Source: an uncultured Bacillota bacterium
GTDB taxonomy: Bacteria; Bacillota_I; Bacilli_A; RF39; UBA660
Direction of reading: 5' to 3'
DNA length: 64,000 bases
Assembly (NCBI GenBank): GCA_947650795.1
Contig: CANSWR010000001.1
Location: 64,398 to 128,397 of the forward strand
In this document: positions 7,147 through 55,210 of the stretch, one piece after another
Layout: each line of letters begins with the position of its first letter
Numbering within the stretch: position 1 is the first letter of the stretch
Translations under genes and position numbers: made by a program
The notes under the pieces: generated by a model
What the model was told of the DNA's origin: nothing
Seen by the model: the letters and a program-made list of their open reading frames with translations, nothing else
Database searches by the model: none

Positions 7147-8902
7147 TATTTAATTCCTCCTCTGAAAGTTGTGATAAAGCTATTTGTTTATAAACATCAC
7201 AATTCTTTAAAAGTTCTTTATGTGTGCCTATTCCCACACATTTACCACTATCTAACACCATAATTTTATCTGCATTCATAATAGTTCCTATTCTCTGTGC
7301 TACAATTAAACTTGTAGCATTTTTAGTATATTTTTTTAATTCTTTGCGTAGAATAGCATCCGTTTTATAATCAAGTGCAGAAAAACTATCATCAAAAATA
7401 TAAATTTCAGGATCTCTAGCTATTGCTCTAGCAATGGAAAGTCTTTGCTTTTGACCTCCAGAAACATTTGTACCTCCCTGAGCAATATGAGCATTATACG
7501 TACCGTCCATTTTTTCAACAAATTCTTGACCTTGTGCGACCTTAATAGCTTCTTTTATAATCTTATCACTTTTTTCTCCTTTACCATTATCTCCATACGC
7601 TACATTAGACTTAACAGTACCATCAAACATAACAGCTTTCTGAGGAACATATCCTATTTTATTATGAAGAATATCTTGTTTATAATCTTTAACATTAATT
7701 CCATCAATCAAGACTTCTCCTTCTGTTACATCATAAAATCTAGGTATCAAATTTATAAGAGTACTCTTTCCACTTCCAGTACTTCCAATAAAAGCTATAG
7801 TTTCTCCTCTATTAGCTTTAAATGAAATATTTTTAAGTAAACATTCTTCTGCATCTGGATATTTAAAACTAACATCCTTAAATTCTACAGTTCCAACTAA
7901 ATCAGTTTCTACATTCTGAATGTCTCCGTCTTTTATACTAATCTCACTTTCAATAACTTCATTTATACGTTCTGCTGACACCTGCGCTCTAGGAATCATC
8001 ATAAATATCATAGCAAGCATTAAAAATGACATAATAACCTGCATAGCATAAGAACTAAAAACTACCATATCTCCAAATAAAACTAATTTATCTGACATAG
8101 TCGCGACATCAATAATATGAGCTCCTATAAAATATATAGCTAAAGTTAAAAAATACATAATCAAATACATTACAGGTGACATAACGCTAAAAGCTTTCTG
8201 ATTAAATAACTGCATATTAGTTAATTCATCATTACATTTACCAAACTTATTCTCTTGATACTTTTCTGCATTAAATGCACGCACTACTCTAATTCCTGTA
8301 ACATTCTCTCTAGTAATATTATTTATTTTATCTATCAATTTTTGAACTTTTTTAAACCTTGGAAGAACCAAAATCATTAAAGTTATAATAGTGCTTAAAA
8401 GTATTAAAACTGCTACTGCAACAACTGCACTCCACTGCCAATTCTTATTAAGAATTTTAGTAATCGCCCAAACAGCAGTTATAGGTGCTTTAATAATTAA
8501 CTGTAACCCCATAGAAATAAGCATTTGTATTTGAGTAATATCATTAGTAGTTCTAGTAATTAAACTACTAGTAGAAAATTGTTTTACTTCATGAATTCCT
8601 AAATCTCCTACTTTGCTAAATAATTTTTTTCTAACTTTCATAGAAAAACTTGCAGAAATATTAGAAGCAGTGAAGCCAACTATAATAGCAGAAATAAGAC
8701 TCCCTAAAGCACACAAAAGCATATACCCACCATTTAAAAGTATTTCTTTCATACTACTTCCTTCTGTTTGTACTAAAACAGTAATCTTAGACATATAATC
8801 TGGCAGTCTCAAATCAAGCCAAACTTGACCGACTATTAATAAAATTGCAAATATTATAAAAAATATATCTTTTCTATTAAAATTTCTAAATAATTTAAAC
8901 AT
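7139..8902 (-). CDS. ABC exporter, fused permease-ATPase subunit (partner)
   Basis: TM domain followed by Walker A GSTGSGKST, signature VSGGQKQRLSIARAIA and Walker B IYIFDDSFSALD. RBS AGGAGGG. No C39 peptidase domain is present. Confidence 0.9.
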   Translation of the reverse strand: MFKLFRNFNRKDIFFIIFAILLIVGQVWLDLRLPDYMSKITVLVQTEGSSMKEILLNGGYMLLCALGSLISAIIVGFTASNISASFSMKVRKKLFSKVGDLGIHEVKQFSTSSLITRTTNDITQIQMLISMGLQLIIKAPITAVWAITKILNKNWQWSAVVAVAVLILLSTIITLMILVLPRFKKVQKLIDKINNITRENVTGIRVVRAFNAEKYQENKFGKCNDELTNMQLFNQKAFSVMSPVMYLIMYFLTLAIYFIGAHIIDVATMSDKLVLFGDMVVFSSYAMQVIMSFLMLAMIFMMIPRAQVSAERINEVIESEISIKDGDIQNVETDLVGTVEFKDVSFKYPDAEECLLKNISFKANRGETIAFIGSTGSGKSTLINLIPRFYDVTEGEVLIDGINVKDYKQDILHNKIGYVPQKAVMFDGTVKSNVAYGDNGKGEKSDKIIKEAIKVAQGQEFVEKMDGTYNAHIAQGGTNVSGGQKQRLSIARAIARDPEIYIFDDSFSALDYKTDAILRKELKKYTKNATSLIVAQRIGTIMNADKIMVLDSGKCVGIGTHKELLKNCDVYKQIALSQLSEEELNNE

Positions 8903-9269
8903 TATATATTCCCTCCTAAACTTCTATTAAATTGTAAGTAACATCTTAAAGACTATCAAATTTATTTAAACTAATTTTCTTATAAAAAAATCAATTTATT
9001 ACAACAAAAAATAATTAGTTACCTAACAAATATACAAGATTATATAACCTCGTTTCAACAAAGTCAATAACTATTATATTACATTTTCATTACAATATCA
9101 CAAATTTAACAAAATTTTCACAAAGTAAAAAAACGTAAAAATAATATTACTAAAATGTAAAATTTTACGCTTTTATTTTTTCTAAAAATTATTTAAAGAG
9201 TTTGAATATATTACAATCGTATAAAGTTAGTAGAGGGGAAGAAAAACCACTCTAGAAAGGAGATTAAAA

Positions 9270-9389
9270 ATGAATATAACCGAATTAAAATTAATTCAAG
9301 GTGGAATGATTCTTTATCCATTTAGAAACATATTTACTAAAATTGTTACTAATGTATATAAATTAATCAAATTAATAACTAGATAATTC
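9270..9389 (+). CDS. Small ORF (39 aa) with a double-glycine-type leader; candidate secreted or bacteriocin-like peptide
   Basis: Absent from the ORF track (too short). RBS AAAGGAGA lies 6 nt upstream of the ATG. Translation: MNITELKLIQGG / MILYPFRNIFTKIVTNVYKLIKLITR. ELxxIxGG matches the class II bacteriocin GG-leader consensus. The mature part is cationic and hydrophobic. Confidence 0.3.
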
Positions 9390-9402
9390 TAACCTAACAA
9401 AA

Positions 9403-9432
9403 ATGCAGGTAAATCACTTGCCTGCATTCAAC
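9403..9432. terminator. Hairpin terminator downstream of dfx (minus strand), between the peptide ORF and dfx
   Basis: 7-bp stem ATGCAGG...CCTGCAT, followed on the minus strand by a TTTTT run. Confidence 0.5.
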
Positions 9433-9441
9433 AATGAAAAT

Positions 9442-9804
9442 TTACATTACATTCTTCCACAAAGAATGTTTGTTACAAAAAGAATAAACCTCTAAACCTT
9501 CTATATAAGGAACTACACATTCTGCTTTATCTCCAGGATTTAACTTTATTAATTTTGAATATTCATTAGTTACTATAAGAATCCATTTTATATAATGATC
9601 TTCATCCATAGGATGTTCTATCTCACCTACTCTAATGTAAGCTTGATTATCCTCCACTTGAATAACAGGCTTATGTTTAATTTCTCCTTCTCCAGTTGAA
9701 ACACTTATTTCTTCTAATTCTTGATTACAACATTTCAATAACTTTTCATTACCATCTAATAAAGAAACAATATTTCCACATATCTTGCACTTAAAAATCT
9801 TCAT
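9442..9804 (-). CDS. dfx: Desulfoferrodoxin (2Fe superoxide reductase)
   Basis: N-terminus MKIFKCKICGNIV...CC is a desulforedoxin-type Cys cluster. The C-terminal neelaredoxin-type domain carries His/Cys ligands (HP...H...C..H). Length 120 aa is typical. Confidence 0.85.
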   Translation of the reverse strand: MKIFKCKICGNIVSLLDGNEKLLKCCNQELEEISVSTGEGEIKHKPVIQVEDNQAYIRVGEIEHPMDEDHYIKWILIVTNEYSKLIKLNPGDKAECVVPYIEGLEVYSFCNKHSLWKNVM

Positions 9805-41832: not shown

Positions 41833-41895
41833 TCTACATTACCTCGGTATAAATATTATATCAAAAACATATAACATTTTCAATTAATTGAAAAA

Positions 41896-41913
41896 ACACT
41901 ATGTATACATAGT
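41896..41913 (-). terminator. Rho-independent terminator after the third TasA-like gene
   Basis: Perfect 9-bp palindrome CACTATGTA/TACATAGTG, followed on the minus strand by TTTTTT. Confidence 0.6.
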
Positions 41914-41914
41914 G

Positions 41915-42508
41915 TCAGTTATTAATAGTTGGTCTCTGTGTTGTTCCATTAGGATTTTGATCATTATAGTATATATCTGACTCTCCTAAATCTGCATAAA
42001 GAAGTGCAGAAAAAGTTTTTCCTTGATTTTGATTTTGTACTACACCTGTCTCAGGTAATTCCATAGTTAAAGTGTATGTTACACTTTGAGCCTCATTGCT
42101 AGCTGGAAAAGTCTTACTAACTATAGTATATGACTTCTTTTCTCCTGTAGAATCTAAAACTAAAGTTCCTACTGCACCATCTGACACAGAATCAACTTTA
42201 GCAGTTAACTCTGGCATATCATTAGTATAATCTAATTTAATATAAACTGTCTGTTCAACAACAGAAGGTGCTACTGTAATAGAAAAAGTTTTACTCTCTT
42301 TCCACCCAGGTTCAATATCAGTAGAAGCAACAAAATCACTACCACCATCAAATGTTACTCCACCTATAGTACTTGTAGAAATTACAACATCTCCTGGATT
42401 TCCTTCTATACTACCAGTAAAATAAGCAAAAGAGACACCCACCGCTGTAACTAAAACAGTCATTATTGTTAATACACTTAAAACAATCTCATACTTCTTT
42501 CCACTCAT
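41915..42508 (-). CDS. TasA/camelysin-like secreted protein with SipW-cognate-type signal peptide (paralog 3)
   Basis: Signal region ...TAVGVSFAYFTGS. TasA-like segments IEPGWKESKTFSITV and C-terminal QGKTFSALLYADL. Confidence 0.6.
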   Translation of the reverse strand: MSGKKYEIVLSVLTIMTVLVTAVGVSFAYFTGSIEGNPGDVVISTSTIGGVTFDGGSDFVASTDIEPGWKESKTFSITVAPSVVEQTVYIKLDYTNDMPELTAKVDSVSDGAVGTLVLDSTGEKKSYTIVSKTFPASNEAQSVTYTLTMELPETGVVQNQNQGKTFSALLYADLGESDIYYNDQNPNGTTQRPTINN

Positions 42509-42534: not shown

Positions 42535-43131
42535 TTAAAGATTAGGATCTCCTTTAGCAACTATCTTTCCTTTAAAACTCTTACCTTGTAAAAAGTCTTG
42601 AGAAACTCCACTCTCTGTCAACATAAGTTTCAATTCACAATTATGAGTTACTCCAGTATTTATCATACCAGTTCCTATATTAGTACTTACTGTAGGAACC
42701 TTTCTAGGACTAGATACTTTAACTAAAGTATTCTTCTCACTTTCATTAATTTCTTTCCCATCCTTAACACTTGTACATTCTAAAGTATACACAAAATTAG
42801 CGTCATTTATATAATTCTCTTCTATTTCCCAAGCTAAAGTATAATTAGCATATAAATTATCTTCTGTACTTGTATTAACTATTGAAAAATTTAAAGTATC
42901 ACTCCATCCTGGAAGAATATCTTCACCATTTATACTATCAGTAGTTTCAAACATAGCAAAAACCTGAGCACTCTTCAATACTGTTTCACCATTTTCTTCA
43001 TTACCAACTACATTAGCAATATAAGCTGCATATGTTGTTCCAACTGCAACTGCTATAAAAGATAAAACTGGAATAACTGCTATAATAATTTCTTTAATTT
43101 TTGAATTTTTATTCTTTTTCTCTTCTTCCAT
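42535..43131 (-). CDS. TasA/camelysin-like secreted protein (paralog 2)
   Basis: Signal AVGTTYAAYIAN. TasA-like segments ILPGWSDTLNFSIVN and C-terminal QGKSFKGKIVAKG. Confidence 0.55.
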   Translation of the reverse strand: MEEEKKNKNSKIKEIIIAVIPVLSFIAVAVGTTYAAYIANVVGNEENGETVLKSAQVFAMFETTDSINGEDILPGWSDTLNFSIVNTSTEDNLYANYTLAWEIEENYINDANFVYTLECTSVKDGKEINESEKNTLVKVSSPRKVPTVSTNIGTGMINTGVTHNCELKLMLTESGVSQDFLQGKSFKGKIVAKGDPNL

Positions 43132-43296: not shown

Positions 43297-43935
43297 TTAT
43301 TGTACATTTGGTTTAGTAGTTGTTCCGCCTTGATTAGCATCGTTATAATAAACACCTTCTGCACTTTCTAAACCACAACTTACTGTAGCATTAAATCTCA
43401 TACCTTGTTGAGCATTTTGATCAGTACCAGTTTCTTTGAAAGTAATTGAATACTTCATAGTCTTAGACTCACCAGATTTTAATGTTCCCTCAGCAATTTT
43501 AATCTTTTGAGGAGTACCAGCTGGTGTTAGTTCAGTAGTACCATCTGTATCAAAAGTTGCATATTTAACTATTGGTAATCTCTTATCATTAGCAGTAGCA
43601 TCAATATTATCTCCATTTACATTTAAGAACATATCAATTACTTCATTCCCAGTTACTTCTAGATTACATACATAATTAACATCAAAATCAGATGTTCCTA
43701 AAGATACTGTAACATTTTTTTCTTCAGAAGTCTTACCAGGTAAGATACTAGTTAAATTCAAAGCATCAGCTGTATAACTAACTTTACCTAAAGTACCAGT
43801 TGTAGCTTGTACATCTGCACTATTTCCACTCATTGTTGTAGTGAAATACGCGAATGTAGCACCTATAATAGCAACTAATAAAGTAGCAATACCAATTACT
43901 GATAGAAAAATAGTTTGTCCTCTGTTATCGTTCAT
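43297..43935 (-). CDS. TasA/camelysin-like secreted protein with SipW-cognate-type signal (paralog 1)
   Basis: Signal IIGATFAYFTTT, which matches GGTFAYFSD-type SipW-cognate signals. TasA-like segments QATTGTLGKV and C-terminal QQGMRFNATV. RBS GGAGG. Confidence 0.6.
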   Translation of the reverse strand: MNDNRGQTIFLSVIGIATLLVAIIGATFAYFTTTMSGNSADVQATTGTLGKVSYTADALNLTSILPGKTSEEKNVTVSLGTSDFDVNYVCNLEVTGNEVIDMFLNVNGDNIDATANDKRLPIVKYATFDTDGTTELTPAGTPQKIKIAEGTLKSGESKTMKYSITFKETGTDQNAQQGMRFNATVSCGLESAEGVYYNDANQGGTTTKPNVQ

Positions 43936-44159: not shown

Positions 44160-45842
44160 TTATCTAGTACCCACTTTTAATCTTCCAAAGAACACTTTTC
44201 CTATATCAAAACTTTGATCATTATTCATATTCTTAAATTCATAAGTAAATTCATAGTTATGTGTTTCTCCTGGATTAATAGTCACATTAGTGATTATCTT
44301 CTGTCCATTATTAGCAGAATATAATACTCTTCCCTTATCTGGAGCAATTAACTCCTGATTATTTCTCTTAACTCCAAAATAAGGTCTATTTTCATATGTA
44401 AAACTATTTACCATATCATCCCATTCAATATCATAAGAAATAACTTCACTAGTATTATTAGTAACTTTAAAAGATTTAGTAGCTTTCCATCCTGGAACCA
44501 TCTCTACTGACTTAGGCAGAACATCTAAATAATCTAAACTATAAGTTAATCCTTTTTCATTTATATTGGCATCTTTAACTACATTCATAGATGTATCAAT
44601 TAAATCTCTATCTGCTATTCTATCTTCATTAGTATCTAAATTAGCGTCTGCTTTTCCATCATCATTTAAGTCAATATTAATATCTGCTTTTCCGTCTCCG
44701 TCTATATCTATATTCAAATTCGGAATTCCATTTTTATCTAAATCACAATTTAAGAAACATTTTCCATTCGCTTCTTGATTCATTAAATTCTTATCTGGTT
44801 TTCCATCTCCATCTGTATCTATATTAATGTCTGCTTTTCCATCTTGATCATAATCCAAATTTAGATAATTTCCATCTCCCATACTTATATTAATATCTGC
44901 CTTGACATCTCCATCTGTATCACAATTCAAATCACACTTACCATCACCAGTGGTATCAATATTTATTTCAGCAAGTCCATCATTATTTGTATCTATGTTA
45001 ATATCTGCTTTTCCATCTCCATCTAAATCAACATTTATCACTGGAAAATAACCATCTTTTATTAAACAATTAAGAACACATTTTCCATCTGTTTCTTGAT
45101 TGACTAAATTTTCATCTGGTTTTCCATCTCCGTCTGTATCAAGTCCGAAAATAGCTTTTTCATAATCATTTCCATATGTAACATTAACATCTGGTTTACC
45201 ATCGTTATTTGTATCTATGTTAATATCTGCCTTGCCATCTCCATCTGTATCTATATTTACCTGTGCTGTTCTTAACCCTAAAACATCACAATTTAAATCA
45301 CACTTTCCGTTTCCATTCTTATCTAAATTAATTCTAGCAACACCTGTTCCAGAAAAATCTAAATTAGTATCAGGATATCCATCTCTATTTGTATCACAAT
45401 TTATATCACATTTCCCATCATTATTTGTATCTTGATTAACTAAATTTTTATCCGCTTTTCCGTCTCCATTTGTATCTATATTAAAAAATGAAATTAAAGT
45501 CTTCTTATAACCTATATTAATATTTGGCTTATTATCTCCATCTGTATCACAATTAACATTACACTTGCCATCTCCATTTATATCTACATTTAAGTCTGGC
45601 CATCCATCTCCATCTGTATCTATATTAACGGCAAGAGATTTTCTAGCTTGAAAATAATTGATTATGACCACAGTAGTAGCAATAGTAGCACCTATAAATA
45701 TTAGCAAAGCAAAAATCATCATAACTTTTTGCTTACCTCTCTGTCTCTTATTCTTAGGATCTTTAAAATATAACCTTTCTTCTTCTATGATTCTTCTTTT
45801 CTCTTCTTCTCTTCTTATATCTTCATATCTTTCTCTATTCAT
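44160..45842 (-). CDS. Signal-anchored cell-surface protein with TSP3-like Ca-binding Asp repeats and a C-terminal TasA-like domain
   Basis: Charged cytoplasmic N-terminus, one TM helix (MMIFALLIFIGATIATTVVIINYF), about 30 DxDGDGKxDxNxD repeats, and a C-terminal domain with VPGWKATKSFKV...GKVFFGRLKV. It has its own TTGATT-17-TATCAT promoter and a GGAGA RBS. Confidence 0.8.
   Translation of the reverse strand: MNRERYEDIRREEEKRRIIEEERLYFKDPKNKRQRGKQKVMMIFALLIFIGATIATTVVIINYFQARKSLAVNIDTDGDGWPDLNVDINGDGKCNVNCDTDGDNKPNINIGYKKTLISFFNIDTNGDGKADKNLVNQDTNNDGKCDINCDTNRDGYPDTNLDFSGTGVARINLDKNGNGKCDLNCDVLGLRTAQVNIDTDGDGKADINIDTNNDGKPDVNVTYGNDYEKAIFGLDTDGDGKPDENLVNQETDGKCVLNCLIKDGYFPVINVDLDGDGKADINIDTNNDGLAEINIDTTGDGKCDLNCDTDGDVKADINISMGDGNYLNLDYDQDGKADINIDTDGDGKPDKNLMNQEANGKCFLNCDLDKNGIPNLNIDIDGDGKADINIDLNDDGKADANLDTNEDRIADRDLIDTSMNVVKDANINEKGLTYSLDYLDVLPKSVEMVPGWKATKSFKVTNNTSEVISYDIEWDDMVNSFTYENRPYFGVKRNNQELIAPDKGRVLYSANNGQKIITNVTINPGETHNYEFTYEFKNMNNDQSFDIGKVFFGRLKVGTR
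44640..45640. repeat. Degenerate tandem repeats encoding Asp-rich TSP3-like units within the 560-aa gene
   Basis: Periodic GATACAGATGGAGATGG-type units. They produce spurious plus-strand Ser/Phe/Pro-rich ORFs in the track. Confidence 0.7.
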
Positions 45843-45979
45843 ATTCTCTTCTCCTATTATCTAATATAAATGATAACATAAACAAATTGTTAAATCAAAT
45901 GAAAAGATTACTACTTATCATAAATTTTACGAACTAATTTATACAAAAAGAACTGCTATAATTAATAGCAATTCTAATA

Positions 45980-48900
45980 TTAATTCATTGTATCTACTCT
46001 AAGTTTAGCACTAAATGTCTTATCTTTATCAACATCTTGATTAAATTCCGTATTTCTAAACTCATAAGTTATTGTATAAACGTGAACCTCTCCAGGTTGA
46101 ATAGAAACATTTTCAACTAAACTCTTACCTTGATCAATATTTCTAGGAACTCTAGCAGTTTGAATATCTGCCACTACATTTCCATTTCTTGATAAACCAT
46201 AATATAAATTATTAGTTTCTGTAAATGTATTTATTATATTTGTCCAACTTATTTTATATTTAAGAACAGATGTACTATTATTCATAATAATAAATGTTTT
46301 ACTTCCTGTCCATCCAGGTACTAAGGCATTACTATTTAATTGACTTGTATCAACAAATTTCAACTGGCCAAGTATTACTTCCTCATCATCGCATTTTTCA
46401 TCACACTCGCCATCTCCGTCTGTGTCACATTCTTTAGTACAGTTTCCAGCATCGTCATAGCAGTTATAATCACATATTCCGTCCCCATCTGTATCACAAT
46501 TCTTCGTACACATATTAGGTTTATCTGGATTTTCATAGCAATTCAAGTCACAGACTCCATCTCCATTTGTATCACAATTCTTTGTACATACTCCTGGGTT
46601 ATCTGGATCATTATGACAATTTACGTCACAGACACCATCTCCATCAGTGTCACAGTTCTTTGTACATAAATCTGGTCTGTCTGGGTTTTCATGACAATTT
46701 CTATCACAGACTCCATCTTTATTATCATCACAATCATTCTGACAAGTACAGTTTCTATCACAAATTCCGTCTCCGTTATCATCACAATTTTTAGTACACA
46801 CATCTGGATTATCTGGATTTTCATTACAATTTAAGTCACAGACTCCGTCTCCATCTAAATCACAGTTCTTTGTACATACTCCTGGTTTGTCTGGATTTTC
46901 ATTACAATTTACATCACATTTTCCATCTCCATCTGTATCACAGTTCTTTGTACACACTCCTGGCTTATTTGGGTCTTCATAACAGTTTCTATCACAAATT
47001 CCATCTCCGTTGTCATCACAATTCTTTGTACATACTCCTGGTTTATTAGGGTCATCATAACAATTTACATCACAAACACCATCCCCATTTGTGTCACAAT
47101 TCTTTGTACATACTCCTGGTTTATTTGGGTCTTCATAACAGTTTCTATCACAGACTCCATCTCCGTTGTCATCACAATTCTTTGTACATACTCCTGGTTT
47201 ATTTGGATCATTATGACAATTCACATCACAAATTCCATCTCCATTTGTATCACAATTCTTTGTACATACATCTGGTCTATTTGGATCTTCATAACAGTTT
47301 CTATCACAGATTCCATCTTTATTATCATCACAATTTATTTTACAATAGCAATTTCTATCACAAATTCCGTCTCCGTTATCATCGCAATTTTCCTTACAAG
47401 TACAATTTACATCACAAATTCCATCTCCATTTGTGTCACAATTCTTTGTACATACTCCTGGTTTATTTGGGTCTTCATAACAGTTCATATCACAGATGCC
47501 ATCTCCATTGTTATCACAATTTTTAGTACATACTCCTGGTTTACTTGGATCTTCATAGCAGTTTACATCACATTTTCCGTCTCCATCTGTATCACAATTT
47601 TTAGTACACACATTTGGTTTATTCGGATTTTCATAACAATCTACATCACATTTTCCGTCTCCATCTGTATCACAATTCTTTGTACATACTCCTGGTTTAC
47701 TTGGATCTTCATAACAGTTTAAATCACAAATTCCATCTCCATTATTATCACAATTCTTTGTACATACATCTGGTTTTTTAGGGTCTTCATAACAATTTAC
47801 ATCGCATTTTCCATCCCCATTTGTATCACAGTTTTTAATACATTTATCATTATTATCATAACAATTTTTATCACATTTATCATCGCCGTTAATGTCACAG
47901 TTTTTATCACACTTTCCGTCTCCGTCTGTATCACAATTCAAATCACACTTGCCATCTTTATCTGTATCACAATTTAAGTCGCACTTTCCGTCTCCGTTTG
48001 TATCCAAATTCATATCTGGCTTTCCGTCTCCATCTGTGTCACAGTTTAAATCACAAATTCCGTCTCCATCTGTATCTTGGTTAGTAAGATTATCATCTGG
48101 TTTTCCATCTTTATCTGTATCACAGTTATAGTCACATACTCCATCATTATCTACATCTATATTTATATCTGGTTTTCCATCCCCATCTACATCTATATTT
48201 GTATCTGGCCATTCATCTCCATTTGTGTCACAGTTTAAATCACATACTCCGTCTCCATTTGTATCTTGATTTATTGGATTTCTATCTGGTTTTCCATCTC
48301 CGTTTGTATCAACATTTACATCTGGTTTTCCGTCCCCATCTATATCTAAATTCATATCTGGTAACTTATTCCCATTTGTATCTATATTTGTATCTGGTTT
48401 CCCATCTCCATCTATATCACAGTTATAATTACAGTTTCCAGTTCCATCAGTATTACAGTTTAAGTCACACTTTCCGTCTCCGTCTGTATCTATATTAATA
48501 TCTGGTTTTCCATCTCCATCTAAATCCAAATTAGTATCTGGCCATCCATCTTTATCTGTATCACAATTCAAATCGCACTTGCCATCTCCATTTGTATCCT
48601 GATTTACAAGATTTTTATCTGGTTTTCCATCTCCATCTGTATCTATATTAAATATTGGTTTATCATCAGGATCTCCTTTTATAGAAATATTAATATCTGG
48701 TTTTCCATCTCCATTTGTATCACAATTGACATCACACTTTCCGTCTCCGTTTGTATCTATGTTTAAATCTGGTTTCATATCTCCATCTAAATCACAGTTC
48801 AAATCACATTTTCCGTCTCCATCTGTGTCTATATTAATATCTACCTTGCCATCTCCATCTAAATCCAAATTAGTATCTGGCCATCCATCATTATCTATAT

Positions 48901-49348
48901 CACAGTTCAAATCACACTTTCCATCTCCATCTGTGTCTTGATTCATTAAATTCCAATCTGGTTTTCCATCTCCATTTGTATCAACATTAAATATAGCTGC
49001 ATGTAACTTTCCAAATTTAGGATAACTTATATTAATATCTGGTTTTCCATCTCCATCTGTATCACAGTTTACATCACATTTTCCATCATTATCTAAATCT
49101 ATATTTAAGTCTGGCCATCCATCCCCATTCAAATCAACATTAAGTTTATAAGTATTATTTCTAATATAATTAACAATAGACCAAGTTCCAAAAGCAGTAA
49201 GTCCTAAAAGTATAACAAAAAATATAAATATTAAAATAAATCTTTTTTTCTTCTCATCCTTTGTCTCAGCCATCTCATAATAAAGGCCATCCTCTTCTAT
49301 AATTTTTTTCTCTTCCTCAGTATAAGGGTCTCTTTTTACACTCTTCAT
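45980..49348 (-). CDS. Giant (1122 aa) signal-anchored surface protein: TSP3-like Asp repeats, about 20 Cys-rich 26-aa modules, and a C-terminal TasA-like domain
   Basis: Cytoplasmic N-terminus and TM helix (FILIFIFFVILLGLTAFGTWSIV). DxDGDGKPDxNxD repeats. The repeated module CTKNCDTNGDGICDVNCYEDPNKPGV. C-terminal ALVPGWTGSKTFII...DKTFSAKLRV. The terminator is a TGCTAT...ATAGCA hairpin. Confidence 0.85.
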   Translation of the reverse strand: MKSVKRDPYTEEEKKIIEEDGLYYEMAETKDEKKKRFILIFIFFVILLGLTAFGTWSIVNYIRNNTYKLNVDLNGDGWPDLNIDLDNDGKCDVNCDTDGDGKPDINISYPKFGKLHAAIFNVDTNGDGKPDWNLMNQDTDGDGKCDLNCDIDNDGWPDTNLDLDGDGKVDINIDTDGDGKCDLNCDLDGDMKPDLNIDTNGDGKCDVNCDTNGDGKPDINISIKGDPDDKPIFNIDTDGDGKPDKNLVNQDTNGDGKCDLNCDTDKDGWPDTNLDLDGDGKPDINIDTDGDGKCDLNCNTDGTGNCNYNCDIDGDGKPDTNIDTNGNKLPDMNLDIDGDGKPDVNVDTNGDGKPDRNPINQDTNGDGVCDLNCDTNGDEWPDTNIDVDGDGKPDINIDVDNDGVCDYNCDTDKDGKPDDNLTNQDTDGDGICDLNCDTDGDGKPDMNLDTNGDGKCDLNCDTDKDGKCDLNCDTDGDGKCDKNCDINGDDKCDKNCYDNNDKCIKNCDTNGDGKCDVNCYEDPKKPDVCTKNCDNNGDGICDLNCYEDPSKPGVCTKNCDTDGDGKCDVDCYENPNKPNVCTKNCDTDGDGKCDVNCYEDPSKPGVCTKNCDNNGDGICDMNCYEDPNKPGVCTKNCDTNGDGICDVNCTCKENCDDNGDGICDRNCYCKINCDDNKDGICDRNCYEDPNRPDVCTKNCDTNGDGICDVNCHNDPNKPGVCTKNCDDNGDGVCDRNCYEDPNKPGVCTKNCDTNGDGVCDVNCYDDPNKPGVCTKNCDDNGDGICDRNCYEDPNKPGVCTKNCDTDGDGKCDVNCNENPDKPGVCTKNCDLDGDGVCDLNCNENPDNPDVCTKNCDDNGDGICDRNCTCQNDCDDNKDGVCDRNCHENPDRPDLCTKNCDTDGDGVCDVNCHNDPDNPGVCTKNCDTNGDGVCDLNCYENPDKPNMCTKNCDTDGDGICDYNCYDDAGNCTKECDTDGDGECDEKCDDEEVILGQLKFVDTSQLNSNALVPGWTGSKTFIIMNNSTSVLKYKISWTNIINTFTETNNLYYGLSRNGNVVADIQTARVPRNIDQGKSLVENVSIQPGEVHVYTITYEFRNTEFNQDVDKDKTFSAKLRVDTMN
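46400..47950. repeat. Near-identical 78-nt tandem DNA repeats (about 20 copies) encoding the Cys-rich TSP3-like modules
   Basis: Visible periodicity, for example ...CAATTCTTTGTACATACTCCTGGTTTATTTGGGTCTTCATAACAGTTTCTATCACAGACTCCATCTCC... recurring every 78 nt. Spurious plus-strand ORFs at 46340-46669, 47089-47526 and 47213-47722 derive from these repeats. Confidence 0.85.
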
Positions 49349-49417: not shown

Positions 49418-50470
49418 CTATACACCATTACTCTTATTTTTTTTACACAATTTATCATAAATTATATTTAACAATATAAATAACCCAGTAACAATAACAA
49501 ATAAATAAAAACTTAACCCCCTACTAATAAGCATTGCACTACCAAGAATTGATGTAGGAAACAAAGACTTAAACATTAACATAAATGCCCCTTCACTAGC
49601 GCCCACAGTTCCTGGCATAGGCATATAAGAAACAGCCATACTAAGAGAAGCTTGTAAAAACACAAATGTAAAAAAGTTTTCTCCTTGTAAACCTAAAGAC
49701 TTAAAAACAAAATAAGGAACACTATAATACAAAATCATCTGAACTAAAGTTGTTAAAAAGATTTTAAATAGAATTAGTTTATGATTTTTTAAATAAACTG
49801 AACATTCATGATACTCATCTATTTGCTTCAAGCATTTATCATAAAATAAATCACTTTTTTTATAATGAATTTTCTTTAATATTTTATAAACTAAATTAAT
49901 TATCTTTGTAACACTAACCTTAGAAAAAATCATCATAATCAAGAAAGTTAAATAAAGAATATTAATAATCATTCCCAAAAACATAAAATATTTCATACTA
50001 CTAACAGAATTCATAAGTATATCAAAATTAATAATTAATCCTGTTAAAGATAACACACATAGTACTGCTTGAAAACTAGAAAGTTCTACTAACAAAGCAA
50101 GAGCACTATGAGAAATAGAAAGACCATCTTTAGCCATAAAATACAACTGAGCAGGATCTCCACCAGTTGAAGATGGAGTTATAGAACTAAAAAAGAATCC
50201 AACACATGCGTACTTAAACGATGATATAAAACTGACATCATGTCCTGTAGTTTTTAAAACTCTTCTAATGTTAATCCCCTCTCCACTTATAAAAGCAAAC
50301 ATACATAAAATTCCTATAAAAATAAACTTAAAATCAGTCTTATAAATATTATTAAGTATCAAATTAATATCATGATTTTTAAACACAACAAAAAAAGTAC
50401 AACTAACACACAGAAAAAATAACAATAAGTAAACTATTCTAACCTTTCTACTTTTCATCATAACTATCAA
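49418..50470 (-). CDS. Flippase-like / LPG_synthase_TM (UPF0104) family membrane protein
   Basis: 350 aa, polytopic, with TPSSTGGDPAQLYFMAKDG. This family is commonly linked to glycolipid glycosyltransferases. Confidence 0.6.
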   Translation of the reverse strand: MIVMMKSRKVRIVYLLLFFLCVSCTFFVVFKNHDINLILNNIYKTDFKFIFIGILCMFAFISGEGINIRRVLKTTGHDVSFISSFKYACVGFFFSSITPSSTGGDPAQLYFMAKDGLSISHSALALLVELSSFQAVLCVLSLTGLIINFDILMNSVSSMKYFMFLGMIINILYLTFLIMMIFSKVSVTKIINLVYKILKKIHYKKSDLFYDKCLKQIDEYHECSVYLKNHKLILFKIFLTTLVQMILYYSVPYFVFKSLGLQGENFFTFVFLQASLSMAVSYMPMPGTVGASEGAFMLMFKSLFPTSILGSAMLISRGLSFYLFVIVTGLFILLNIIYDKLCKKNKSNGV

Positions 50471-51113
50471 GTCTCCTAAAATTATAACCTCTTTCCAACA
50501 AAATAGGCAAAGCTTTTTCTAAAGCTTTTAACGTTCTATAAGGAGCATTATTTTTTCCTCTTCCATCATGCAAACATATAATATCTCCTCCACGAACTCT
50601 ATTAATAATTCTTGTTTTTATTTCATTCTCACTAATATTAGCACGCCAATCCTCTGCCATAACATTCCAAAAAACTAATTTTAATTTATACTTACTAACA
50701 AAATACAAACTAAATAAATTTATATTACCCCAAGGTGGTCTATAAAACTTTAAATCTTTTAAAACTCTTGTACTATCTCTAAAATCTTTAAAAGTTCTAA
50801 AAAATCCCATAAACCATGCATTTTTATGTTTTAAAGAATGAATACCTATTAAATGTCCTTCATGATACATTCTTTCTATTAAATCCTTATTTTTTAAAGC
50901 AAAATCTCCTACCACAAAGAAAGTACATTTAATATCATATTTCTTTAACAAATCTAATATATGATTAGTATATATACTAGGACCATCATCAAACGTCAAA
51001 TACAAATTATTTCCATTTTTAGGACGTTTTAACTTATAAAATAACTTATAAAAATACGTTGGAATTACATCATATATTATAAATAGAACAATAACTATTA
51101 TAACCCACTTCAT
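50448..51113 (-). CDS. Polysaccharide deacetylase (CE4, NodB homology)
   Basis: LTFDDGPS motif, His-rich motifs (HSLKH, HDGRG) and an N-terminal TM helix. Confidence 0.8.
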   Translation of the reverse strand: MKWVIIVIVLFIIYDVIPTYFYKLFYKLKRPKNGNNLYLTFDDGPSIYTNHILDLLKKYDIKCTFFVVGDFALKNKDLIERMYHEGHLIGIHSLKHKNAWFMGFFRTFKDFRDSTRVLKDLKFYRPPWGNINLFSLYFVSKYKLKLVFWNVMAEDWRANISENEIKTRIINRVRGGDIICLHDGRGKNNAPYRTLKALEKALPILLERGYNFRRLDSYDEK

Positions 51114-52150
51114 AATAATTCACCAGTATAACTAACGTTTTCAAACTCTAACTTAACATTCCTCATATTATTTTTCATAACATTAATTTTTTCCTTTGCT
51201 TCTACCATTTCTATTATATCACTATGAATATATTTTTTATTCTTCCAAAGAACTTTTCCTATTCCTTTACGTTCAATATATAAAGCATTTCCTACTTCTT
51301 GAGCTAAAAAAGGTTTTAAACATAAAATAGGAGTTTCACTTCTTATAGCTTCACTCATTGTAATCCCACCTGCTTTAGTAACTATTAAAGTAGCTTTATT
51401 CATATACTCATAAACTTTATCTGTGAATCCTATAATATTTATATTTTTATATTTCATATATAACTTATTATAAAGTTTTTTATTATACCCTAAAATAACA
51501 TTAACATGTATATTATCATACTTTTCAAGAACATCTAAAGAATTACTTATACCAGGAATTAACCCTAATCCACCGCCCATTATTAAAACTTCCGTTTTTC
51601 CTAAACTAGATTTATCACAAAACTCACTTTTTACGGGAATACCACTAACACATATATCTTTATTATTTATACCATTATACATTAAAAATTCCTTAGTCTC
51701 ATTAGAAGATACAAAATATTTTGAAGTTCCACTATTTAACCATTCTCTATGAACATCCACATCCGTTATAACCGTATACATAATTATTTTACTTCCTGTT
51801 GTTTTCTTAAAAGCAGAAATATACTGTGAACATATAGGTAATACAGAAATAATCAAATCTATATTTTTTTCTTTTATTAATCTTTCTATTTTCTTAACAT
51901 TAACCTTTTTTAAAGGAGCACTAGTACTTTTAGAAGCATACTTATTAAGAAAATTATACAAATGAGAACATTTTCCTACTAAAAAATCAAATAAACAATA
52001 AATTATTTTATTTAACTTAGGAAATAAATATTCTATTAAATCTATTACTTCTACATCACAATTTCCCTCTTTAATTATTTTATCCTTTATACTATAAGCA
52101 GCACTCATATGTCCAAAACCAAACTTACCTGCTAAAATTAAAACATTCAT
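51110..52150 (-). CDS. Glycolipid glycosyltransferase (MGDG-synthase/UgtP-like, GT28)
   Basis: MNVLILAGKFGFGHMSAAYSI is an MGDG_synth-type N-terminus. The C-terminal part is GT-B, including the segment VITKAGGITMSEAI. Confidence 0.7.
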   Translation of the reverse strand: MNVLILAGKFGFGHMSAAYSIKDKIIKEGNCDVEVIDLIEYLFPKLNKIIYCLFDFLVGKCSHLYNFLNKYASKSTSAPLKKVNVKKIERLIKEKNIDLIISVLPICSQYISAFKKTTGSKIIMYTVITDVDVHREWLNSGTSKYFVSSNETKEFLMYNGINNKDICVSGIPVKSEFCDKSSLGKTEVLIMGGGLGLIPGISNSLDVLEKYDNIHVNVILGYNKKLYNKLYMKYKNINIIGFTDKVYEYMNKATLIVTKAGGITMSEAIRSETPILCLKPFLAQEVGNALYIERKGIGKVLWKNKKYIHSDIIEMVEAKEKINVMKNNMRNVKLEFENVSYTGELL

Positions 52151-52301
52151 TTACTTCACCTCAAATTAAAAACAATTTTACACTGTAACCCAGTTGCTTT
52201 CTACCAATTACTAATTACTTTATGTCAATTTAATTTAACATTTATAATTATACATAAAAAAAGACTAATATTTCCTTACACTTTTGTAAGAAAAAACTAA
52301 T

Positions 52302-53186
52302 CTACATATCTTTTGTTTTACTAGCTTTAACTCTCTCTTCTAATTCTTTTAACTTTATTGTGTTAGTTCTCTCTATTTCTTCAGTAGCATTTCTATAATT
52401 TAAACTTATACCTATAACAAAAATAAAAGCTAAAATATAAAGCCAAACCATAAGCATTACTATTGTACCAAGTCCAGCATAATAATGATTATAATCAGCA
52501 ATATTTTTAATATAATAAGAATAAATCATAGTGACTATAAACCAAAGAGTAGTTGTAAACACTGCACCCTTAGTAACATACTTACTCTTTATCTTATCAT
52601 CTGGTGCGATTACATAAATAAGCTTTATAGCAAAATACATAACTAATAAAGTAACTGGAACATTTAAAACTGGATAAAGCATTCTTAAAATATCTACTAT
52701 AGAATTTCTAATACCTAAACTCATACAAATATTTATAATTTGCTCACCAAATAAAGGCACTATTAACATAAAAGTAAAAAGTAAAAATATAATAAGCGTA
52801 ATACCAAATGCTTTTATTCTTCTTTTAATAAAATGCTTATTCTCCAAATTAAATATCATATTAGACGCGACTATTATTGAATCACTACCATTACTAGCTA
52901 AGAAAAAAGAAACACCTAAGTAAATCATAAAACCAAACGAAAAATTTTGCTCAGAAAAAATTGGAGTAATAAGTTTTACTAAATCTTCACTTAAATTATT
53001 AGCAATAAAATCGGTAATAAAAGAAGCAGATAAGTTAAAAGAAGTTGCTATTAAAATTACAATAGATATTATAGGTACAGCACTAAGCACAAAATAATAT
53101 GCTAAAGTGCTAGGCAAAGTAAGCATTTCTGGCTTCTTCATAATATCTAAAACGTTTTTAATAAACTCTTTTATCTTATCTATCAT
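52302..53186 (-). CDS. YihY/BrkB-family membrane protein
   Basis: LTLPSTLAYYFVLSAVPIISIVILIATSF and six TM helices. Confidence 0.7.
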   Translation of the reverse strand: MIDKIKEFIKNVLDIMKKPEMLTLPSTLAYYFVLSAVPIISIVILIATSFNLSASFITDFIANNLSEDLVKLITPIFSEQNFSFGFMIYLGVSFFLASNGSDSIIVASNMIFNLENKHFIKRRIKAFGITLIIFLLFTFMLIVPLFGEQIINICMSLGIRNSIVDILRMLYPVLNVPVTLLVMYFAIKLIYVIAPDDKIKSKYVTKGAVFTTTLWFIVTMIYSYYIKNIADYNHYYAGLGTIVMLMVWLYILAFIFVIGISLNYRNATEEIERTNTIKLKELEERVKASKTKDM

Positions 53187-53191
53187 CTTTA

Positions 53192-55210
53192 CTATTCACC
53201 TTTATTCTTTCTCATCATAATTAGTGCTTCATTTATAGCATCATCAATAGTGGTTGACTCTGCATTTATCATAGAATATCCTACACTAGCGCCATATTCA
53301 TAAGGCAAATTTTTAAATTCTTTTAATAATTTATTAACATATGTTACAATTTGCTTTTCTTCATATCCTACTAAATAAACTAGAAATTCATTTCCATCAG
53401 TTCTAATTATTTCAGAATTTTCTCTTTGAGTTTTTATTAAAATTCCAGCAGCACCCTTAATTTGTTTGTCACCTTCCTCATGTCCCTTAGTATCATTTAT
53501 AGTTGATATACTATTAAGATCAACTACAACAATAGCTTGAGGATAAATCTTATTAGACTCCCAATAATTAAGATTATCATTCAAATAATTTCTATTCTTT
53601 AAATTAGTCATGACATCTAAATACATCATTTTATCTTCTTTTTTAATTTTCTTAGTAACTTTAACTTTCTTATTAAACTTAAATAATAAGAATGATATTG
53701 CTAAAACTAATACCAAAATATAAGTTATATTACTTATAACAAACTGAATAATTATATTTGCATTAACATCATGAAGTGAACTACTAACTGCCATATTATG
53801 AACAGACTTATTACCTAAAGTAGTTAGATAAAAATTAAACATATCATTAAGTACTTTATTATCATTATTCAATAAGAAATTATTACTAACATCACTCATA
53901 CCTATATATTTAATAACATAATTTTTAAGCTTACTATTTTTATAAAAATCAAATGTACTTTTCTCCATTACTATTACATCTTTATTATTCAAACTTTTAA
54001 ATAATTCTTCATAATTATTAAATACATGAACCTCTATTTGTTTTTCTCTTATAAAATTAAATAATCTAGTCTTATCAACCATCTTAATATTATCATCTTT
54101 TATACTTTCTAAACTCTCAACTGGTATAACATTATCTTGATGCGTAATAATAACATAATTTATATTACCTAAACCAACACTTGATTTATAATTAGAATTA
54201 CTAATATTATAATAATTAAGTACCAAATCAACTTTCTTTTGATTTAAAGCTTCATTTAATTTCTGTACATCTGTATATTTAATATATTTATATGTAGCGC
54301 CTGTCATATCTGCAAATAAACTTAAATATTGATTAGTAACCCCACTAAAACTATTATTGATTTTACCTTCAAACGGCATGTTGTCTATATATCCAACTAA
54401 CAAGTCATCCCCAGTAATAGTTTCCTTTTCAAGTTCACTTAATTTATAAGATTTATAATAAAGTGATAAAAAATGTTTATTAATACTTGAATATATATTA
54501 TCTTCCCATTTATTGTAAAACTTTTTAAAGACACTACTTAATATATCTTCATTACTATCTGGCGTAGATAAAACATAATGTGAGTGTAGTCCTTCTATAT
54601 GATACACAATATTATATTTATTATACACTATATCTGTCATATATTTATACATAGGAACAATCGCGTATATTATAGTATCATTCATAGATTCATCAATAGT
54701 TTCAAAATCTCCATATCCTTGAAAACTTAAGCTATAACTTTTTAAATAATCTGATATATAATCTTTATCTGTACTAATAGTGCCTATAACTTGATTACTA
54801 ATTGTAGATAAATCCGTAATTTGATTATCCAGTTTACTTATCAAAACATAATGATCAGTATAAAAAACTAAATCATTCTTTGAAACATCATTTTTATTTA
54901 AAAGCTTATAAGCATCTGCTGAATTACCATCAGTACTTACAGTAATATTAAATGTAAGACCAGTATCTTTTTCCATTTCTCTTAAATAATCATAAAATAC
55001 TCCTTCACCATTTTCACTAAAAATTGGCAAATTAGATTGAACATTAACCTTTTTAACATCAGAAACATTACTATTAATCCAATTTTTTTCAGCAAAAGAA
55101 TAATTATTTTTAGAATTATTTACATAATACAATATTCCAAATATAAGTACTAATAATATTAAAATTAACCCCGTTATTAAAAAATATTTCTTTTTATTAT
55201 TTTTTTTCAT
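53192..55210 (-). CDS. Membrane sensor protein with a large extracytoplasmic domain and a C-terminal degenerate GGDEF domain (DGNEF)
   Basis: TM helix, about 470 aa outside, a second TM helix, then a GGDEF-like fold (AIVVVDLNSISTINDTKGHEEGD...RTDGNEFLV). The GG(D/E)EF motif reads DGNEF. Confidence 0.7.
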   Translation of the reverse strand: MKKNNKKKYFLITGLILILLVLIFGILYYVNNSKNNYSFAEKNWINSNVSDVKKVNVQSNLPIFSENGEGVFYDYLREMEKDTGLTFNITVSTDGNSADAYKLLNKNDVSKNDLVFYTDHYVLISKLDNQITDLSTISNQVIGTISTDKDYISDYLKSYSLSFQGYGDFETIDESMNDTIIYAIVPMYKYMTDIVYNKYNIVYHIEGLHSHYVLSTPDSNEDILSSVFKKFYNKWEDNIYSSINKHFLSLYYKSYKLSELEKETITGDDLLVGYIDNMPFEGKINNSFSGVTNQYLSLFADMTGATYKYIKYTDVQKLNEALNQKKVDLVLNYYNISNSNYKSSVGLGNINYVIITHQDNVIPVESLESIKDDNIKMVDKTRLFNFIREKQIEVHVFNNYEELFKSLNNKDVIVMEKSTFDFYKNSKLKNYVIKYIGMSDVSNNFLLNNDNKVLNDMFNFYLTTLGNKSVHNMAVSSSLHDVNANIIIQFVISNITYILVLVLAISFLLFKFNKKVKVTKKIKKEDKMMYLDVMTNLKNRNYLNDNLNYWESNKIYPQAIVVVDLNSISTINDTKGHEEGDKQIKGAAGILIKTQRENSEIIRTDGNEFLVYLVGYEEKQIVTYVNKLLKEFKNLPYEYGASVGYSMINAESTTIDDAINEALIMMRKNKGE

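Follow-up and report, generated by a model that had tools for sequence, protein, structure and literature searches.

How is a TasA-type protein fibre held on the cell that makes it? For the protein scaffold of Gram-positive biofilms, TasA fibres serve as the model, and their attachment to the cell is still unclear, because the accessory protein TapA acts as a strand-giving initiator rather than as a true anchor. The question is raised by a locus of five genes, all co-oriented on the minus strand, in a 64,000-nucleotide stretch of DNA from an uncultured Bacillota bacterium (GenBank assembly GCA_947650795.1, contig CANSWR010000001.1, positions 64,398 to 128,397; hereafter the window, from whose first letter positions are counted). 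Two of the genes encode giant repeat proteins, g1122 and g560, and three encode small TasA-like proteins, s212, s198 and s197. An earlier interpretation of the letters alone (the sequence-only reading), whose genes and quoted peptides proved exact, had joined the ends of the giants and the small proteins into one family and had argued for a functional interaction such as nucleation, capping or anchoring of a polymer.

45980-49348, minus strand: open reading frame (ORF) of g1122, giant protein of 1122 amino acids (aa), laid out as a cytoplasmic N-terminus, one transmembrane segment, an Asp/Asn/Cys-rich repeat stalk and a C-terminal TasA-like core (predicted)
44160-45842, minus strand: ORF of g560, second giant paralogue of 560 aa with the layout of g1122
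43297-43935, minus strand: ORF of s212, small TasA-like protein
42535-43131, minus strand: ORF of s198, small TasA-like paralogue
41915-42508, minus strand: ORF of s197, small TasA-like paralogue

The last about 135 residues of g1122 and g560 are homologous to the core of s212, s198 and s197, and they lack the segment that in TasA links one subunit to the next. This makes the locus a concrete candidate for the missing anchor role, i.e. a membrane-rooted protein that bears the subunit fold without the linking strand. Specifically, we propose a TasA-type donor-strand-exchange fibre that stalk proteins, presumed to bind calcium, would fasten to the membrane through a donor-less, acceptor-only tip, a proposal for and against which we find the evidence about evenly balanced.

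Homology of the giant tails and the small proteins

In BLASTP, the two tails were 38% identical over 112 residues, and s198, the small protein closest to the tails (Smith-Waterman z-scores of 8.7-9.6), shared 21-26% identity with them over 121-131 residues. A hidden Markov model (HMM) derived from the small proteins only placed the tails at 34-44 bits (37-44 bits for that of g1122), and the reciprocal model, derived from the tails only, gave 48-50 bits for s198, 28-31 bits for s197 and 17-22 bits for s212, while the best score obtained with composition-preserving shuffles (2000 per sequence) was 14 bits. In the comparison that included these shuffles, the two tails reached 39 and 44 bits, and s197, s198 and s212 reached 31, 50 and 22 bits. 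The sequence-only reading had considered that the significance might disappear under compositional correction; since the profile scores of 17-50 bits lay above all shuffles, it survived this control. When hhalign was used to compare the two tails with the locus's own small proteins, the probability was 95.8% (E 7e-9); 25 small-family sequences gave 97.2% (E 4e-11), and 25 such sequences against 26 independent C-terminal tails from other metagenomes gave 98.9% (117 columns, E 1.4e-17). The tails keep the subunit motifs PGW..K.F and Q..D.GK.F. The anchor motifs named by the sequence-only reading are real, both (Q)GK.F....V and PGW..K.F, the latter with s212 (PGK) as an exception, and the claim of one family within one locus is supported. 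Its statement that the tails align with the whole of the small proteins was right as to homology and wrong as to extent, for the aligned block joins small-protein residues ~50-175 with tail residues ~7-132. The end coordinate that it gave, 46396, corresponds to residue 985 of g1122, about the start of the tail.

A bridging family also joins the two groups of proteins. Run exhaustively with HMMER, the tail profile retrieved 1202 proteins at E ≤ 1e-3 among 1.84 billion; word-indexed searches with tail alignments returned 2 matches in one case and, in another, 11 matches that were all hypothetical. Among the best 148 of the 1202, 30 showed the layout of the giants (transmembrane segment, Asp-rich repeats, C-terminal domain), and 115 carried the domain at residues ~45-175, right after a signal peptide ending in (S/T)YAYF, some of them continuing into long extensions. 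An alignment of 27 short N-terminal-type bridging proteins (profile A10) matched the small proteins of the locus over their full length (99.9%, E 2.8e-33) and both tails as well (118.6 and 93.1 bits), so that the homology is closed by transitivity, too. In a phylogeny, proposed as a check by the sequence-only reading, the giant tips did form a clade of their own: 78 of 81 tail cores fell into one clade, nested among the N-terminal-type proteins, which points to an old clade with a maintained, specialised role.

With more than 1000 members, the domain family that emerges from the locus is unannotated and covered by Pfam only in part, and the source annotations of these proteins in all relatives read hypothetical. 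In P0150, P0171, P0188, P0204 and P0218, which come from other metagenomes and are large (500-2300 aa), the same domain stands at the N-terminal end together with signal peptide and donor region; thus, it is found at either end of big surface proteins. P0275, considered as a possible giant, was rejected as an ordinary small subunit.

The donor-strand segment and the kinship with TasA

In the TasA fibre, the sandwich of each subunit (n+1) is completed by a strand that comes from its predecessor (n) (PMC9674648, PMC10151520); this donor strand consists of TasA residues 28-38, the first 11 residues of the mature protein, and is inserted into the next subunit (PMC9674648). The tails have no counterpart for the signal peptide, for the first ~20 mature residues or for the YYN..NP.GTTTKP extension that ends s197 and s212. 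On the scale of A10, the profile of the full-length family (AYF motif at positions 26-28, donor region at 27-42, PGW at 65), all giant tails tested (67/67) began at position 30 or beyond (median ~46), those of the window at 49 (g1122) and 58 (g560), and the small proteins aligned from position 3-5. With the TasA alignment as a ruler, the missing part corresponded to TasA residues 28-38, and the tails kept the equivalents of TasA residues ~40-61, the segment that rearranges on assembly. The sequence ahead of the tails is stalk repeat and not a donor-strand-like N-terminal segment of the TapA type. The g1122 stalk passes straight from its final Cys repeat into the core, its last Cys standing where the donor strand would end, and the signal motif G-x-T-(F/W/Y)-A is absent beside the core in the giant tails.

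45983-46390, minus strand: g1122 tail, aa 987-1122, TasA-like jelly-roll core without donor strand (A10, 118.6 bits, positions 49-174 only)
44163-44561, minus strand: g560 tail, aa 428-560, TasA-like jelly-roll core without donor strand (A10, 93.1 bits, positions 58-172)

The AlphaFold2 model of the g560 tail is an eight-strand beta-sandwich (predicted local distance difference test, pLDDT, 87; predicted template modelling score, pTM, 0.80), the first ~20 residues of which have a pLDDT of ~57. Since the tails have no donor strand, they would be strand receivers only, which argues for anchoring or terminating a fibre and not for TapA-like nucleation; TapA has a different, already complete immunoglobulin (Ig)-like fold and donates the first strand only (PMC9674648, PMC10151520). 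Of the roles offered by the sequence-only reading, anchoring or terminating therefore fits the anatomy, whereas nucleation in the manner of TapA finds no donor-strand equivalent.

The small proteins possess what the tails lack. They carry a signal motif of the predicted SipW type, G-x-T-(F/W/Y)-A↓(A/Y)-F (the arrow marks the predicted cleavage site), and can be divided as follows.

s212: signal peptide, aa 1-29, ending GATFA↓YF; candidate donor strand, aa 30-45; core, aa ~46-189; C-terminal extension, YYNDANQGGTTTKPNVQ
s198: signal peptide ending GTTYA↓AY; no C-terminal extension
s197: signal peptide ending GVSFA↓YF; C-terminal extension, YYNDQNPNGTTQRP

The s212 protein is likely the main fibre subunit. 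Its N-terminal region is invariant in 13 orthologues, and in its AlphaFold2 model (pLDDT 81) the first 15 mature residues are unplaced (pLDDT 39), as expected for a strand that needs a partner. The YYN..N(P/Q).GTT.(K/R)P extension, modelled with low confidence, ends s212 (43300-43368) and s197 (41918-41986) and is missing from s198 and the tails; it may be an inter-subunit contact like the C-terminus of TasA, or a modification site.

The label "TasA-like" turned out to be fair at the superfamily level. The s212 protein, which has the signal motif GATFAYF, marginally matched PF12389 (Peptidase_M73) over residues 14-184 with 23.4 bits (cut-off 22.5), the bridging profile weakly matched TasA (5OF1/8AUR, E 0.002) over K33-I80, including the PG(D/W)..K.F motif, and in 34 of 79 related loci the small genes are directly followed by a gene for a SipW-type (archaeal) signal peptidase I (e.g. 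L022, 11265-11885, plus strand). That peptidase scored 90 bits with TIGR02228 (cut-off 52) and 85 bits with the SipW model, and in locus L084 a gene of this type (8832-9716) directly follows the giant gene. PF12389 was passed by 7 of the 25 small-family members and by 6 of 10 bridging N-type proteins, by the latter at profile positions 3-84 only, i.e. in the N-terminal half. With the BsaA family TIGR04090 (cut-off 60 bits), relatives reached 18-24 bits, and the proteins of the window gave no match. Judged by these sequence matches, the small proteins appear to be a distant branch of the TasA/camelysin family, recognizable at the superfamily level and marginal at the family level.

The predicted folds, confident beta-sandwiches for the tail as well as for s212, are compatible with TasA membership, though they are not proof of it. 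A fold search with the s212 model returned FimG, FimF, PapA and CsuA/B as weak top matches and archaeal AbpA (7UEG) at rank 14. Matches to generic jelly-roll folds were not used as support for TasA membership, PDB sequence matches of the small-protein and tail profiles (tetanus toxin, M4 peptidases) were ascribed to chance, and CopC matches of the bridging profile were discounted as the product of a signal peptide and a generic sandwich.

A proposed membrane-held fibre and its alternatives

Both giants begin with a Lys/Arg/Glu-rich N-terminus of 36-39 residues (49241-49348 and 45726-45842, minus strand), predicted to be cytoplasmic and followed by these parts.

49172-49240, minus strand: g1122 transmembrane segment, aa 37-59, FILIFIFFVILLGLTAFGTWSIV, a hydrophobic stretch after the Lys/Arg-rich N-terminus, ending GTWS
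45660-45725, minus strand: g560 transmembrane segment, aa 40-61, VMMIFALLIFIGATIATTVVII, with the conserved juxtamembrane motif NYF after it
46391-49141, minus strand: g1122 stalk, aa 70-986, with 90 DxDxDG-like (putative calcium-loop) motifs, 108 Cys and 26-aa repeats CTKNCDTDGDGxCDxNCYEDPxKPGV
44598-45626, minus strand: g560 stalk, aa 73-415, with 26 DxDxDG-like motifs and 12 Cys

A motif in the N-termini, E(E/K)KKIIEE(D/E)GLYFEE, is common to both paralogues in metagenome-assembled genomes (MAGs) of many species (giants in L006-L068), and the juxtamembrane NYF...LN(I/V)D stretch is conserved in both giants. The end of the g1122 segment, GTWS, resembles GATFA of the small proteins and GTWA of TasA, and this pattern suggests an origin of the giants from an ordinary subunit into which the stalk was inserted behind the signal peptide. 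The giants have no C-terminal LPXTG, their C-terminus being the TasA-like core. The stalks matched no repeat family of Pfam, TSP_3 included, at E up to 1, g1122 as a whole matched no Pfam family, and the locus defines an undescribed Cys-rich repeat of apparent calcium loops; matches to the MSCRAMM Ser-Asp-repeat adhesins ClfA/SdrC/SdrD (37-99 bits against cut-offs of 999-2500, in the Asp-rich repeats only) were rejected as compositional. The length of g1122 orthologues varies (1122, 934 and 981 aa; L006, 5243-8047; L007, 5140-8085) beside an s212-type gene that is 72-85% identical, which points to changes of repeat number in the Cys-rich stalk. ORFs of 99-169 aa on the plus strand within g1122 (46340-46669, 47089-47722 and 48199-48498), with low-complexity products, look like by-products of repeat DNA and not like genes.

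The association of giants and small proteins is conserved. In 31 of the 60 related loci with enough flank, across MAGs of many species, giants and small genes share one strand; the order of giant(s) followed by small genes recurs in every closer relative, and a reverse look-up from a tail-bearing protein in an unrelated sample yielded the order small, small, giant, SipW-type peptidase. The functional link between the two kinds of protein, for which the sequence-only reading had argued, thus gained conserved synteny in its favour. The arrangement is kept in many uncultured gut species, represented by mouse, human, ruminant and rabbit MAGs. The nearest relatives of the window, whose G+C content is 22-34%, are mouse-gut MAGs labelled 'uncultured Bacilli', and farther ones are MAGs labelled 'Clostridium sp. 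CAG:628/524/914', 'Tenericutes' and 'Mycoplasmatota'.

On these grounds, the five genes might constitute one TasA-type extracellular fibre system of low-GC gut Bacilli. The small proteins, each with a SipW-type signal peptide, a candidate donor-strand N-terminal segment and a jelly-roll core, would be its subunits, the s212-type building the fibre and the s198-type and s197-type serving as minor or adaptor components. The giants would span the membrane once, their N-terminus lying in the cytoplasm, and their long stalk, probably stiffened by calcium, would bear the jelly-roll core at its far end. By accepting the strand of the terminal small subunit, this core would tether or terminate the fibre at the cell, whereas a TapA-like initiator would stand at the other end. 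The unplaced N-terminus of the s212 model, the subunit motifs kept in the tails and the separate clade of the tail cores are consistent with this. The sequences show the homology, the domain boundaries, the lack of the segment, the conserved neighbourhood of the genes and the association with SipW in relatives; polymerisation by strand exchange, acceptance of a strand by the tails, membrane retention of the giants and calcium binding are inferred.

Several observations weigh against this proposal: (i) the tails of 16 of the 67 giants reach back to profile positions 30-39, and these giants may keep part of a strand that closes the groove within their own chain; (ii) s212 passes the PF12389 cut-off by just 0.9 bits, and s197, s198 and both tails have no match to that family above the cut-off; (iii) no SipW-type peptidase was found in the 64-kb window (regular expressions, tblastn) or within 10 kb in the closest, two-giant relatives; (iv) the fold searches are unspecific, Foldseek placing TasA (5OF2) at rank 14 with a template modelling score of 0.54 for the tail model, and TasA being absent from the top 50 for the s212 model; and (v) the transmembrane segments of the giants carry a SipW-type motif, if only a degenerate one, and their resemblance to the signal peptides of the small proteins makes cleavage and release possible and membrane retention less sure. 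In its full form, the proposal describes a pilus, built by a lineage of gut Bacilli with small genomes and rooted directly in the cytoplasmic membrane by calcium-loaded, Cys-rich giants with an acceptor-only pilin tip, with a polarity opposite to the only known accessory role in TasA fibres; this we put forward tentatively, with rather more doubt than confidence. If true, it would constitute a mode of fibre anchoring or termination for which neither TapA nor a sortase, an usher or a cell wall is required.

Alternatively, the giants could be fibrillar adhesins that stand outside the fibre and reuse a TasA-like tip to bind a ligand, for example a glycan of the host or of its diet, their adjacency to the small genes, conserved as described above, reflecting co-regulation of surface structures only. 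In structural comparisons, the tail came closest to carbohydrate-binding modules and to tip domains of toxins or phages, and an anchor, a stalk and a distal domain make up the layout of an adhesin; we consider this explanation unlikely, though not negligible.

It is also conceivable, though to our mind improbable, that the giants are cleaved by SipW and secreted, the new N-terminus (IVNYIRNNTYKLNV... or NYFQARKSLAV...) acting as donor strand, so that each would be a complete subunit with a long calcium-responsive spacer between its strand and its core, by which fibres would be cross-linked or spaced into a gel. In giants of the g1122 lineage, the segment ends in G-(A)-T-W/Y-S followed by x-x-N-Y-F, which aligns one-to-one with GATFAYF and with TasA GTWAAF, and the conservation of the juxtamembrane stretch in both paralogues speaks for this reading. 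A signal-peptide-like motif ends the segment in 17 of 54 giants vs 33 of 359 background proteins, and an HMM of the small-protein signal peptides favoured giants over other N-terminal membrane segments (median 6.2 vs 0.2 bits, top score 29 bits), although this test overstates significance, since the sequences are mutually related. One giant, P0172, has a separate match to profile positions 3-31, and in L084 the SipW-type gene directly follows that of the giant. However, small residues at the would-be -1/-3 positions occur in just 17 of the 54 giants, the segment end of g560 is without them, and the giants of the window score low with the signal-peptide HMM (g1122, 7.6 bits; g560, 11.3 bits). 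Moreover, the conserved motif in the cytoplasmic N-terminus (35-60 residues) is easier to explain if that N-terminus stays in the mature protein, which argues for membrane retention.

Finally, that the likeness of tails and small proteins stems from their shared Thr/Asn-rich composition alone was rejected as having next to no chance, for although some single pairwise alignments are weak (that of the g1122 tail with s212 has a z-score of 3.4, equalled or beaten by 2 of 500 shuffles) and pairwise identities are low (18-26%), profile scores of 22-50 bits stand against the shuffle maximum of 14 bits, hhalign joins the small family and the tails at E 1.4e-17, and an independent bridging family reaches both (E ~1e-33 for the small proteins, 93-119 bits for the tails).

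As to its expression, the locus shows weak promoter-like signals 5' of g1122, of g560 and of a downstream ltaS gene, and two hairpins.

45949-45975, minus strand: terminator-like hairpin directly 3' of the g1122 stop codon (consensus scan only, weak evidence)
41895-41916, minus strand: terminator-like hairpin after s197 (consensus scan only, weak evidence)

The positions of these hairpins, after g1122 and after s197, suggest two transcription units, g1122 alone and g560-s212-s198-s197. The number of small-subunit genes varies between loci, from 3 in the window to 9 in L015 (5606-12065) and 13 tandem paralogues in L070 (10001-20117). In one-giant loci (L021-L046), an 849-aa PgfM/YfhO-like membrane glycosyltransferase is encoded between the giant and the small genes (L022, 7343-9892, minus strand), and it might glycosylate Thr-rich parts of the subunits. 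Just upstream of the cluster in the window, a 672-aa protein (53192-55210, minus strand) combines an extracellular solute-binding-like part with a C-terminal GGDEF domain, and the interval between its gene and the cluster (49418-53186) encodes BrkB/YihY, a monogalactosyldiacylglycerol (MGDG)-synthase-type glycosyltransferase, a polysaccharide deacetylase and an LPG_synthase_TM protein; these genes may provide a cyclic di-GMP and envelope context for a surface-fibre locus.

Comparison with known systems

TasA-like subunits, sets of their paralogues, SipW and donor-strand exchange are already known (PMC9674648, PMC10151520, PMC9245690, PMC13082335); in Pfam, NCBIfam, the source annotations and the literature searched, we found no TasA-like core at the C-terminus of a membrane-anchored giant, none without a donor strand and no Cys-rich calcium-loop stalk of this kind. 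One close comparison is with the tapA-sipW-tasA operon of Bacillus subtilis, with which the present locus shares subunits that bear a G-T-W/F-A↓A/Y-F signal motif (here predicted to be secreted and to form a jelly-roll), a PGx..K.F motif that follows the N-terminal strands rearranged on assembly, a dedicated signal peptidase of archaeal type adjoining the genes (here in relatives) and an accessory protein of the same locus tied, here putatively, to the start or end of the fibre. However, the sequence relation to TasA is distant (PF12389 at threshold; TasA match E 0.002), and the window is without sipW. TapA itself is a SipW-cleaved strand donor with an Ig-like fold (PMC10151520, PMC9674648), whereas the giants carry the TasA-like fold itself without the strand, set on a transmembrane segment and a stalk that is several hundred residues long. 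They have no Ig-like or macroglobulin-like central domain of the TapA type, their domain being homologous to the TasA-like subunit core.

The locus also resembles that of Bacillus cereus TasA, CalY and CapP in that several paralogous TasA-like subunits are encoded together. The signal motif of CalY is GTFAYF, which is nearly identical to GATFAYF of s212. In B. cereus, such paralogous subunits of one locus co-assemble with the aid of an accessory protein (PMC13082335); unlike the giants, CapP is chaperone-like and no TasA paralogue, and a membrane-rooted giant with a TasA-like tip has not been described there.

Distant jelly-roll subunits of TasA type, complemented by donor strands and in some cases dependent on calcium, also build archaeal bundling pili (AbpA/AbpB, AbpX) and cannulae (CanA), and AbpX was among the weak sequence matches. 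AbpB is TapA-like and was proposed to donate the first strand (PMC9245690). In these archaeal structures, in contrast to the putative calcium loops considered here, the calcium sites lie within the subunits and not in a separate stalk. The stalk is reminiscent of thrombospondin type 3 and EF-hand-like repeats, with dense DxDxDG loops framed by Cys pairs; it differs from them in matching neither TSP_3 nor another repeat family of Pfam at E up to 1, and the 26-aa CTKNC...KPGV unit corresponds to no described repeat in the libraries searched.

The arrangement proposed for the giants has a functional parallel in the pilin domains of FimH and PapG of chaperone-usher pili and in the anchor subunits Mfa2 and FimB of type V pili, where a receive-only or non-passing paralogue of the subunit stands at the end of the polymer and defines its tip or its anchor. 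FimG, FimF, PapA and CsuA/B, the best weak structural matches of s212, recall the same principle, although no evolutionary relation exists. Those systems belong to diderms and work with ushers, chaperones or lipoprotein processing, whereas here, in a monoderm, a transmembrane helix would serve as the anchor.

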